49,245 nucleotides of DNA from Candidatus Daviesbacteria bacterium (lineage in GTDB: Bacteria > Patescibacteriota > Microgenomatia > Daviesbacterales > UBA10151), in contig JAQTPP010000004.1 of assembly GCA_028712705.1 (NCBI GenBank), positions 1-49,245 on the forward strand, read 5' to 3'. The position numbers and the translations under genes were made by a program. Positions 15,687 to 16,822 of this stretch are shown one piece after another. Under the pieces are notes generated by a model. It was not told where the DNA came from, ran no database searches, and worked only from the letters and a program-made list of their open reading frames with translations. Each line of letters opens with the position of its first letter. The stretch's first letter is position 1.

Positions 15687-16822
15687 TAATACTGGGGATT
15701 GAAACTAGTTGTGACGAAACTGCGGCTGCGATAGTACAAAAGACCGGAAATCGGATAAAAATTTTATCCAATGTAGTGGCATCATCAGCCAAATTACAAG
15801 AAAAATTCGGGGGTGTGATCCCCGAACAGGCTGCGCGGGAACAGTTAAAAACCATTATTCCAGTAATTGAAACTACGATTAACGATTCACGATTAACGAT
15901 TAACGACATTAATGCCATTGCTGTAACCTACGGTCCAGGATTAATCGGCTCACTTTTGGTGGGAGTAGAAACTGCCAAAACACTAGCTTTTTTATGGAAC
16001 AAACCGCTGATTCCTGTAAATCACCTGCTCGGACACTTTTATGCAAATTGGATCTCTTCATCGTCATTGCGAGCGTCAGCGAAGCAATCCTCTACACCAA
16101 ATGAGGAGATTGCCACGTCAGTCGCTTCGCTCCTTCCTCGCAATGACAAGTTTAACGCTCCTACTTTTCCCTGCATAGGGCTTTTAGTTTCCGGAGGGCA
16201 CACAGATCTGATTTTATTTAAAGATCATGGCAAATATGAGTATTTAGGCGGCACCAGAGATGATGCTGCCGGAGAGTGCTTTGATAAATGCGCCAGACTC
16301 TTGGGATTACCCTATCCTGGTGGTCCAGCCATAGCCCACTTAGCACGTACAGGTGACCCCAAAGCTTTTGACCTACCCCGGCCAATGCTGAAAGATTTTT
16401 CGTCCAAAGGACGACCAGCCTATGGCTGGGACTTTTCCTTTTCGGGACTAAAAACAGCCGTAGCAAACTTATTGCACACCTCCGAGGTGGAAAAAAGCAG
16501 TTACACCTCGGAGGTGAAATACAACCTGGCAGCTTCCATTGAAGCAGCTATTGTTGATGTTTTAGTTGCCAAAACTATTAAAGCCGCCCAATTCTATCAC
16601 GTGAACCAAATCATGATTGCCGGAGGAGTAGCGGCGAACCAAACTTTGGTTCGCAATTTAAAATTAAAAATTAAAAATTTAAAATTAAATACAAAGCTTT
16701 TTGTGCCACCTCCTGAACTCTGCACTGACAATGCCGGCATGATTGCCACTGCCGCCTTTTTTAACTATCCCCCCACTGACCCTTTAAAACTACAAGCCAA
16801 CCCCAATTTATCCTTATCCTAA
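15683..16822 (+). CDS. tsaD: tRNA N6-adenosine threonylcarbamoyltransferase
   Basis: ILGIETSCDETAAAIV, YGPGLIGSLLVG, LLVSGGHT, DDAAGECFDKCARLLGLPYPGGP, GGVAAN. Carries several repeat-derived insertions. Confidence 0.92.
   Translation: MIILGIETSCDETAAAIVQKTGNRIKILSNVVASSAKLQEKFGGVIPEQAAREQLKTIIPVIETTINDSRLTINDINAIAVTYGPGLIGSLLVGVETAKTLAFLWNKPLIPVNHLLGHFYANWISSSSLRASAKQSSTPNEEIATSVASLLPRNDKFNAPTFPCIGLLVSGGHTDLILFKDHGKYEYLGGTRDDAAGECFDKCARLLGLPYPGGPAIAHLARTGDPKAFDLPRPMLKDFSSKGRPAYGWDFSFSGLKTAVANLLHTSEVEKSSYTSEVKYNLAASIEAAIVDVLVAKTIKAAQFYHVNQIMIAGGVAANQTLVRNLKLKIKNLKLNTKLFVPPPELCTDNAGMIATAAFFNYPPTDPLKLQANPNLSLS
15875..15909. repeat. Heptamer array (ACGATTA/ACGATTC) x4-5 inside tsaD
   Basis: ACGATTA ACGATTC ACGATTA ACGATTA ACGACAT read directly. 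Encodes TINDSRLTINDI. Confidence 0.8.
16063..16147. repeat. 85-nt palindromic MITE/RPE-like element inside tsaD (termini GTCATTGCGAG ... CTCGCAATGAC)
   Basis: Perfect 11-nt terminal inverted repeats. Internal arms GCGAAGC/GCTTCGC and GCAATCCTC/GAGGAGATTGC. Encodes about 30 extra residues (SLRASAKQSSTPNEEIATSVASLLPRND) between the GH and LLVSGGHT motifs. Confidence 0.85.
16477..16516. repeat. Perfect 13-bp inverted repeat CACCTCCGAGGTG / CACCTCGGAGGTG (14-nt loop) inside tsaD
   Basis: Read directly. Encodes TSEVEKSSYTSEV. Same stem family as murB 1360-1393. Confidence 0.85.
16655..16689. repeat. Heptamer array (AATTTAA/AATTAAA) x5 inside tsaD
   Basis: Five consecutive units read directly. 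Encodes NLKLKIKNLKLN. Confidence 0.8.

Follow-up and report, generated by a model that had tools for sequence, protein, structure and literature searches.

The gene tsaD, encoding the tRNA N6-adenosine threonylcarbamoyltransferase, is present as a sole copy in the 852-kb genome (18 contigs, 39% G+C, hereafter G000) of a Candidatus Daviesbacteria bacterium. It lies in the 49,245-nt stretch of contig JAQTPP010000004.1 that was analysed here as a whole (the window), and it carries in frame an 85-nt palindromic mini-element, the subject of this work. The features discussed are listed in Table 1; other G numbers denote further genomes and L numbers denote fetched loci. The termini of the element form a perfect 11-nt inverted pair (16063-16073, GTCATTGCGAG, and 16137-16147, CTCGCAATGAC) with a spacing of 63 nt, and an 8-bp pair, AGCGAAGC/GCTTCGCT, is nested between them at 16078-16085 and 16124-16131. 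Folded as RNA, the element reached -39.6 kcal/mol (z = -6.1), with none of 200 shuffles being equally stable, and the segment 16062-16148 folded as DNA at -22.1 kcal/mol (z = -5.4). With at most one mismatch, the 11-mer GTCATTGCGAG occurred three times in the window compared with 0.46 expected. The palindrome with perfect termini and nested repeats that had been described for this site in an initial annotation of the letters alone was thus borne out by coordinates, pairing and fold z-scores, and the residues given there agree with the translation. The isolated halves were no better than shuffles (-3.7 kcal/mol, z = -0.9, for the left half, 16063-16089, and -3.3 kcal/mol, z = +0.65, for the other), and these weak fold energies gave no support to the idea that each half is a hairpin of the repetitive extragenic palindromic (REP) type.

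The host protein is clearly a TsaD. It matched the solved Salmonella and E. coli TsaD structures in the PDB at 3e-73 and retains the invariant metal-site and catalytic residues of the TsaD/Kae1 fold (His-His-Asp; H114, H118 and D349). Between the GH of the metal-binding motif and LLVSGGHT we counted 48 residues versus 17 in E. coli, in line with the annotated spacing of about 47 versus 17. In the DNA, the distance from HFYANW to SGGH is 168 nt, compared with 72-84 nt in orthologues with an empty site, and the net gain over the nearest of these (L030) amounts to 93 nt or 31 residues. The earlier figure of about 30 residues added by the element therefore holds with one refinement, namely that the gain is 93 nt, since 85 is not divisible by three. 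An AlphaFold model based on 35 sequences had a mean predicted local distance difference test score (pLDDT) of 90.6 and a predicted TM score of 0.89, and superimposed on solved TsaD with TM scores of 0.93-0.95 (normalised by target length) and a root-mean-square deviation of 1.7-2.0 A. Mean pLDDT in the 10-residue blocks from 131 to 160 was 51, 48 and 67, the confidence being about 50 only over residues 131-150. According to this model the enzyme core is intact despite the insert, and because the low-confidence segment stands between two confident core elements, it is probably a surface loop exposed to solvent. From the modelling suggested by the initial annotation, the match of the core and the low confidence of the insert are direct results, and the exposure of the loop is a reading of them.

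To place the long loop in a phylogenetic context, tsaD was extracted from 54 Microgenomates genomes and the loop was measured from HFYANW to SGGH. It was empty (72-84 nt) in 17 of the 54 orthologues, which is the loop length of E. coli, and the long loop is therefore derived. The remaining loop sequences are unrelated between species. An insert shared at the amino-acid level by distant orthologues had been named beforehand as an observation that would speak against an insertion; the TsaD alignment showed inserts that are unrelated or absent instead.

Repeat family and its gene-carrying units

We counted 32 occurrences of the terminal 11-mer GTCATTGCGAG in the 852 kb of G000, and the census of these termini that had been proposed thus revealed a multicopy family. 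Searching for GTCAT plus any 6 nt with an inverted partner within 30-230 nt, we obtained 35 complete GTCAT...ATGAC elements of 55-121 nt, among which the stem subfamilies TGCGAG, TCTGG, TCTGAG and CCTGGA were distinguished. They share one architecture: GTCAT is followed by a stem, a small module that varies, ...ATC, a loop, GAT..., another module and the complement of the stem, and ATGAC closes the element. The modules are shuffled between copies, and inverted doublets as well as single halves occur. In the flanks of the 35 copies, the base at position -1 is T in 28 copies and C in the other seven (including the tsaD copy), A stands at +1 in 31, and the left flanks are G-poor and the right flanks C-poor.

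The elements are frequently found within genes. Nineteen of the 35 complete copies lie inside open reading frames (ORFs) that extend for 40 aa or more in either direction, the ends being read as VI.., SL.. or CH.. and as ..ND or ..MT, and the frame that would give TGA is never used. For the hosts of in-frame elements, Pfam confirmed atpG, fpg, murB, dnaX, gyrB and two genes for methyltransferases; valS, leuS, topA and carB were named by eye only. The proposed kinship of the tsaD element with the copies in murB and valS and with an intergenic copy at 32563-32651 was confirmed inasmuch as all of these copies are real and share the architecture, the ends of the intergenic copy being degenerate. 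As 19 of the 35 copies lie in frame inside long ORFs, and housekeeping genes are frequent among these, the notion of one superfamily resembling transposable elements of the miniature inverted-repeat kind (MITEs) that is tolerated in essential genes likewise held.

The family is widespread but patchy. In 41 relatives the end 11-mer was found 0-62 times per genome versus 0-1 times for the reversed control, with zero copies in four genomes of the same genus. Among 301 evenly sampled Patescibacteria, 108 contained at least one copy and the maximum was 66, the reversed control reaching 0-2 overall. One sampled genome, G281, differs from every other in having all of its 24 copies of the 11-mer on a single strand, which may reflect a tandem or half-element array.

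A longer form of these repeats carries a gene. Two TGCGAG ends spaced 340-390 nt apart, instead of about 60-90 nt, were found as five pairs in four genomes, each enclosing one small ORF that matches the Pfam GIY-YIG catalytic domain (1e-12 to 3e-18). The units are about 360-480 bp long, and their sole gene encodes a predicted single-domain GIY-YIG nuclease of 92-97 aa; the nearest solved proteins are UPF0213 EF2693 and BH0048, at an E-value of about 1e-4. When 41 genomes were searched with the GIY-YIG ORF and the flanks of the homologues fetched as loci were scanned together with the G000 copies, 27 ORFs were recognised. GTCAT-type ends of the matching subfamily were present within about 30-135 nt on both sides of 11 of the 27 and on one side of six more. 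All 17 end-flanked ORFs matched at E <= 1e-24, and none of nine weaker GIY-YIG homologues scanned had GTCAT-type flanking ends. Gene-carrying forms with matched ends were found at different loci for TGCGAG, TCTGGA, TCTGAG, CCCGAG and CCTGAG, i.e. for every stem subfamily found on units; one TGCGAG-type ORF, for example, is located at G017:C6:3866-4144.

The arms of the tsaD element recur on such units. Its right arm is identical in 41 of 41 nt to the left end of a unit in G024, a genome of another genus (L152, G024:C1, near 25105-25386), and its left arm in 26 of 27 nt to the left end of a unit in G021 (L142). Set against TsaD proteins with only about 70% identity, the identity over 41 nt suggests either a recent transfer of elements between genera or a very strong constraint on the arms. 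G000 has a GIY-YIG unit of its own on contig C5, and the intergenic mini-element of the window shares 32 of 32 nt with its left and 21 of 23 nt with its right end. The two therefore form a pair of parent and miniature in one genome, and judged from these ends the intergenic copy is a deletion derivative of the C5 unit. Across genomes, repeats were more numerous the closer the best nuclease homologue was (Spearman 0.67, p = 1e-6), and the median was 10 copies with a close homologue versus 0.5 without (p = 2e-5).

Table 1. Positions of the tsaD element, its host gene and the further features described in the text (positions in the window unless a contig is named).
Feature	Position	Strand	Remarks
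tsaD, 379 aa	15683..16822	+	Pfam TsaD, 1.9e-86
Loop segment without counterpart in solved TsaD structures	16052..16150	+	alignment gap, residues (codons) 124-156
85-nt palindromic mini-element, GTCATTGCGAG ... CTCGCAATGAC	16063..16147	.	in frame in tsaD; encodes SLRASAKQSSTPNEEIATSVASLLPRND
Left arm of the tsaD element	16063..16089	+	GTCAT head followed by an ATTGC...GCAAT stem that encloses a GCGAAGC module
Right arm of the tsaD element	16107..16147	-	minus-strand reading GTCATTGCGAGGAAGGAGCGAAGCGACTGACGTGGCAATCT
56-nt element, GTCATTCTGGC...CCAGAATGAC	1559..1614	+	in frame in murB (MurB by Pfam)
57-nt element, subfamily of the murB copy	19384..19440	+	in frame in a 719-aa ORF (valS by eye)
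Related element, TTGTCATTCCTGCGAA...TTCGGCGGAATGACAA	26513..26600	-	open through a 405-aa ORF for a putative membrane protein
Intergenic mini-element with degenerate ends	32563..32651	.	ends match those of the C5 unit
GIY-YIG unit of G000	C5:15551-15935		92-aa ORF at C5:15594-15872, CCTGA-type
Five Y1_Tnp genes, 218-243 codons	C7:115767-116423, C7:122107-122769, C10:43304-44035, C10:129370-130038, C11:55053-55781		PF01797

Inserts in the TsaD loop of related genomes

In most species the loop at residues 124-156 contains a different palindromic insert, and three repeat families are involved. Class A comprises the GTCAT-type inserts of eight orthologues, which use three reading frames: SLR.. in the tsaD described here and in L034, VI.. 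or VV.. in L010, L012, L014 and L031, and SHP.. in L044; the eighth, L011, has a degenerate head, GTTATCGC. Hairpins of the CAGCTATCAGC type (class B) occupy the loop of seven orthologues and those of the CACCTTCCAGGTG type (class C) the loop of five. On a maximum-likelihood tree of TsaD built from the protein minus the loop, eight changes are required to account for the eight carriers of class A, and well-supported branches force at least four of these. For instance, L014 is the sister of the empty L027 (support 99/95), and L044 is the sister of L049 in a tight clade of three that also includes L047, which is empty.

The family found in the loop is multicopy in the genome of the carrier itself. 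Genomes with class A in the loop (G000, G017, G014 and G033) contain 32, 62, 15 and 9 end copies, and those with class C (G013, G018, G009 and G007) contain 21, 19, 9 and 7 copies. The exact class-B heptamer matched 12 times in G004 and 10 times in G005, with overlaps in tandem runs counted separately, and eight and seven times in G008 and G020, which have variant class-B loops. The insertions are therefore independent, lineage-specific events at one place. In L031 an insertion is even nested, one half-element lying within another. The repeated hits on this loop may reflect targeting, or else the presence of only a few places in TsaD that tolerate inserts; the alignment contains at least three further variable sites beyond 124-156.

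Several additional observations concern TsaD and its surroundings. In L010 (G019:C18), the loop element is of the GTCATTCCCGCGAAAGCGGGAATC type and includes a threefold 27-nt tandem repeat (YNKVSSSA x3), so that elements can also grow internally. In the orthologue alignment, palindrome-derived inserts occur in some species at no fewer than four separate places, i.e. after residue ~70, at 124-156, at ~265-278 and at ~332, an example being ...LPRPFGARND... after residue 70 in L012 and L013, and the orthologue ORFs range from 331 to 461 aa. The present tsaD has a second small hairpin doublet at 16477-16516, CACCTCCGAGGTGGAA...TTACACCTCGGAGGTG, read as HTSEVEKSSYTSEV and common to several orthologues, while others carry much larger palindromic inserts at this site (VILNVAKRSEES..., NAANSRRAKR...). 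An A/T-rich low-complexity segment at 16655-16700, aaattaaaaattaaaaatttaaaattaaat, is read as KLKIKNLKLN, and other orthologues have inserts there. Directly upstream of tsaD (14935-15686) lie two small ORFs of 116 aa and 134 aa. The second of these, the 134-aa ORF (...GNKRTAL...), resembles by eye a toxin of the Doc/Fic type, with the 116-aa ORF as its partner, and its stop overlaps the tsaD start (ATGA).

Origin of the element and competing explanations

We consider it likely that the palindrome in tsaD is a translated, nearly neutral in-frame mini-element derived from a GIY-YIG-nuclease unit and located in a loop that is recurrently colonised by repeat families. The 85 nt would represent a non-autonomous, gene-less miniature made of the two inverted ends of a unit of about 0.36-0.48 kb, which would have landed in the DNA for the TsaD loop that joins the His-His metal-binding helix to the SGGHT strand. 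Two of the three frames through the GTCAT...ATGAC ends are free of stops, and the tsaD copy plus about eight flanking bases gives the 93 nt, so that the ribosome would read through and the core, intact apart from this, would gain approximately 31 residues of hydrophilic and probably disordered character. The tsaD insert would persist because it is close to neutral at this place, and copies disrupting essential genes would be lost. By analogy with Ssn, the small single-domain GIY-YIG nuclease of Neisseria discussed below, an enzyme cutting single-stranded DNA (ssDNA) beside the hairpin head would be the one that moves the elements.

A number of points weigh against this explanation. For the nucleases of the units, transposition and cleavage are a proposal made by analogy, and for Ssn itself only ssDNA cleavage and an effect on transformation have been demonstrated, not transposition (PMC11893778). 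No target-site duplication was seen: 31 of the 35 copies have no direct junction repeat, and the four short matches at the others (1, 3 and 4 nt) look like chance. In addition, the lengths of the intragenic elements span all three classes modulo 3, which ruled out a length model with a fixed duplication; with both findings taken together, the exact mobile unit is therefore undefined. The co-occurrence statistics of nuclease and repeat are uncorrected for phylogeny, and G013 has 41 end 11-mers and no close nuclease homologue. A search of G000 yielded no gene-carrying unit of the TGCGAG subfamily, only the CCTGA-type unit on C5, so that the tsaD copy may either be a fossil that no longer moves or have been moved in trans. 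Lastly, an exact-protein look-up returned this TsaD sequence from one contig only, and retention of the insert in mRNA and protein is judged from the reading frame only.

Among the competing explanations, the one that survives best, although we regard it as unlikely, assumes that the repeats do not transpose and that recombination or gene conversion, such as may accompany natural transformation, spreads and homogenises them, with the GIY-YIG gene serving a host function such as an Ssn-like control of incoming ssDNA and sitting between two recognition sites. The cleavage of ssDNA next to the Neisseria repeat and the modulation of transformation by SsnA, for which no transposition was shown (PMC11893778), would fit this assumption, as would the module-like shuffling of arms between copies and the missing target duplication, and the 41-nt arm identity across genera is compatible with concerted evolution or strong constraint. 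However, recombination alone leaves unexplained how new copies arose at many unrelated sites, and copy numbers vary from 0 to 62 within one genus. Moreover, every unit-borne stem subfamily has units with matched ends at different loci, and both ends of the deletion derivatives recur on a unit of the genome in which they lie.

Very unlikely, in our opinion, is a REPIN-like nature of the GTCAT elements, in which they would be moved by the RAYT-like (REP-associated tyrosine transposase) Y1 (HUH) transposases of the genome and not by the GIY-YIG nuclease. G000 does have five Y1_Tnp genes in only 852 kb, which also match REP_Tyr_transpos NF047646 below its cut-off. The conserved 5-nt head followed by variable palindromes and the occurrence of inverted doublets and single halves recall REPINs, and the lack of a visible target duplication resembles Y1 transposition. 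Nevertheless, not one of 25 Y1 genes in five genomes (the five here and twenty in four relatives) was flanked by GTCAT-type ends, apart from a single half-copy 100 nt away, whereas all 25 were flanked by hairpins of the CCACC-N-GGTGG type plus a TATTGACAC box. This also applied to the four Y1 genes of G017, which contains 62 end copies, and the number of Y1 genes tracked the repeat count weakly (rho 0.31). On the basis of these flanks, we rejected Y1/RAYT proteins as the mover of the GTCAT family.

The Y1 genes are instead associated with small hairpins of their own. The class C hairpin CACCTGGAAGGTG brackets Y1 genes in G017, G018 and G006, and the bracketing hairpins, including those at loci L116-L135, belong to one kind with the small hairpins found in frame, CACCTTCCAGGTG and CACCTCSGAGGTG. 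A 40-nt unit, CCGCAGGTGTCAATACCAATCCACCCCAAGGGTGGAC, stands on both sides of the first Y1 gene on C7 (115767-116423), and solo copies of it occur at C9:32350-32390 (in frame in lepA, read as SAGVNTNPPQGWA), C7:9560-9605, C14:8900-8940 and C10:29705-29750.

We find it highly improbable that the segment is removed before translation, as an intron-like sequence or a processed hairpin, leaving a TsaD with a normal loop. The perfectly pairing termini and the very stable RNA hairpin would lend themselves to such processing, but the tsaD ORF is open through the element, and excision of exactly 85 nt shifts the frame, with a stop following at codon 137, so that tsaD would be destroyed if its RNA were cut out between the two ends of the palindrome. 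Furthermore, 13 of the 19 intragenic copies have a length that is not a multiple of three, yet all of them are stop-free in the frame of the host, and every orthologous tsaD insert is both open and a multiple of three. An Rfam scan of 15500-17000 at E <= 1 gave no family match. The reading frame thus argues that the 31 extra residues are probably present in mature TsaD.

Finally, we attach almost no probability to the loop being an old functional feature of Daviesbacteria TsaD with a chance palindrome, or an assembly chimera: a long loop is indeed present here in many orthologues, but its sequence is unrelated between species where it is not empty, the same DNA recurs elsewhere with the same peptide (e.g. 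on contig C14, where a large ORF contains MSLRASAKQSS...), independent assemblies from other studies have an insert of this type in the same loop (L014, L031 and L034), and the tsaD frame is intact.

Going beyond the translated mini-element favoured here, we put forward with considerable doubt that the hairpin-gene-hairpin units are autonomous transposons with a structure-specific ssDNA nuclease as their transposase, and that these units and the small hairpins linked to RAYT have a preference for inserting into certain stretches of loop-coding DNA or into DNA in which a hairpin is already present. If this were true, the GIY-YIG units would be among the smallest known autonomous transposons, loops such as TsaD 124-156 would be genuine insertion hot spots and a main source of the protein-length variation in the candidate phyla radiation (CPR), and the long-missing enzyme of the CGTC/RPE repeat superfamily, described below, would have been supplied.

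Relation to known repeat systems

Palindromic repeats in frame in essential genes, so far a curiosity of Rickettsia, are hereby found in a distant phylum with ultra-small genomes. To our knowledge, no mobilising enzyme had been named for the in-frame repeats of Rickettsia, which have been known since 2000. The matched gene-carrying and gene-less forms of several subfamilies amount to a comparative signature of mobility that was only hypothesised in the work on Ssn and its repeat, and a single loop of an essential enzyme that was colonised independently by three families represents a natural experiment on targeting versus tolerance. Such inserts also explain part of the odd protein loops of CPR bacteria, which confuse annotation and structure prediction. 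A description of these elements in CPR/Patescibacteria was not found in the literature, and papers matching the letters of the 11-mer were unrelated. New in this study are the gene-carrying parent form, the recurrent colonisation of the loop and the placement of the family beside the CGTC-tagged and Ssn/NTS systems.

The Rickettsia palindromic elements (RPEs) of Ogata et al. (2000), as summarised in later articles, are in-frame palindromic insertions with a reviewed length of about 150 bp (PMC10969869, PMC3733652). The resemblance is considerable, as both are multicopy palindromes in frame in unrelated housekeeping genes of a small genome, are read through and are compatible with the protein fold, about half of the copies being intragenic and dimers encoding 20-30 residues. 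In contrast to the RPEs, the host phylum is Patescibacteria, the elements are shorter (85 nt in tsaD, 55-121 nt in the family) with a modular interior, a gene-carrying parent form is visible, and one loop was hit repeatedly by several families. The comparison with the RPEs made here is one of behaviour.

RPE-4 and RPE-6 have been assigned, together with the Neisseria dRS3, to a CGTC-tagged REP superfamily, in which the tag is sometimes TGTC, the stem begins with AT, inverted dimers occur, intragenic dimers encode 20-30 residues, and the members "apparently lack a dedicated transposase" (Di Nocera, De Gregorio and Rocco 2013, PMC3733652). The tsaD copy, C|GTCAT-TGC..., carries the tag and shares the AT start of the stem, the inverted pairing and the intragenic copies. 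It differs from this superfamily in the absence of the 8-9-bp stem with a 4-5-nt loop, in place of which its halves have a 5-bp ATTGC/GCAAT stem around a variable module of 13-25 nt.

The closest parallel to the gene-carrying units is SsnA, a 94-aa single-domain GIY-YIG protein that cuts ssDNA next to the Neisseria repeat CGTCATTCCCGCGMAVGCGGGAATCYRG and modulates transformation (Chenal et al. 2025, PMC11893778). Homologues of ssn are often bracketed by such motifs, and an analogy of NTS-ssnA-NTS to an insertion sequence was raised only as a hypothesis; the words "Patescibacteria" and "intragenic" are absent from the main text of that paper, and gene-less inverted MITE-like doublets are not described in it (PMC11893778). 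Common to both systems are a GIY-YIG gene of about 94 aa between YGTCAT-headed hairpins, dispersed multicopy repeats and the co-occurrence of gene and repeat. The difference lies in the Ssn-related motif (SRM), HGTCWYN(0-2)YYVSBRHN(0-5)WNVSBRGN(0-2)RNCYNB, which neither half of the tsaD element matches. G000 does contain five canonical SRM sites versus 0.9 in shuffles, e.g. TGTCATTCCCGCGAAAGCGGGAATCCAT, which is close to the Neisseria NTS consensus; they were located at C9:10941-11008, C9:34918, C10:102188 and C13:208.

The REP/REPIN-RAYT systems likewise have short hairpins headed by a conserved motif, form inverted doublets and include a small partner gene that lies between repeats of its own, but in the present elements the head is GTCAT and not GTAG, and the partner is a GIY-YIG nuclease and not an HUH Y1 protein. 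As in classical MITEs, the terminal inverted repeats are shared with a longer, gene-carrying element (41/41, 26/27, 32/32 and 21/23 nt), whereas, unlike in MITEs, the tsaD-family elements have no target-site duplication. The tsaD element has the head, the AT at the start of the stem, the tail and the gene association in common with these repeats. Since both the SRM pattern and the 8-9-bp stem failed, we class it as a variant that falls outside the SRM and CGTC groups in the strict sense. From its sequence, it is best described as a long whole-element palindrome with modular arms, standing in a MITE-like relation to a putative Ssn-type unit.

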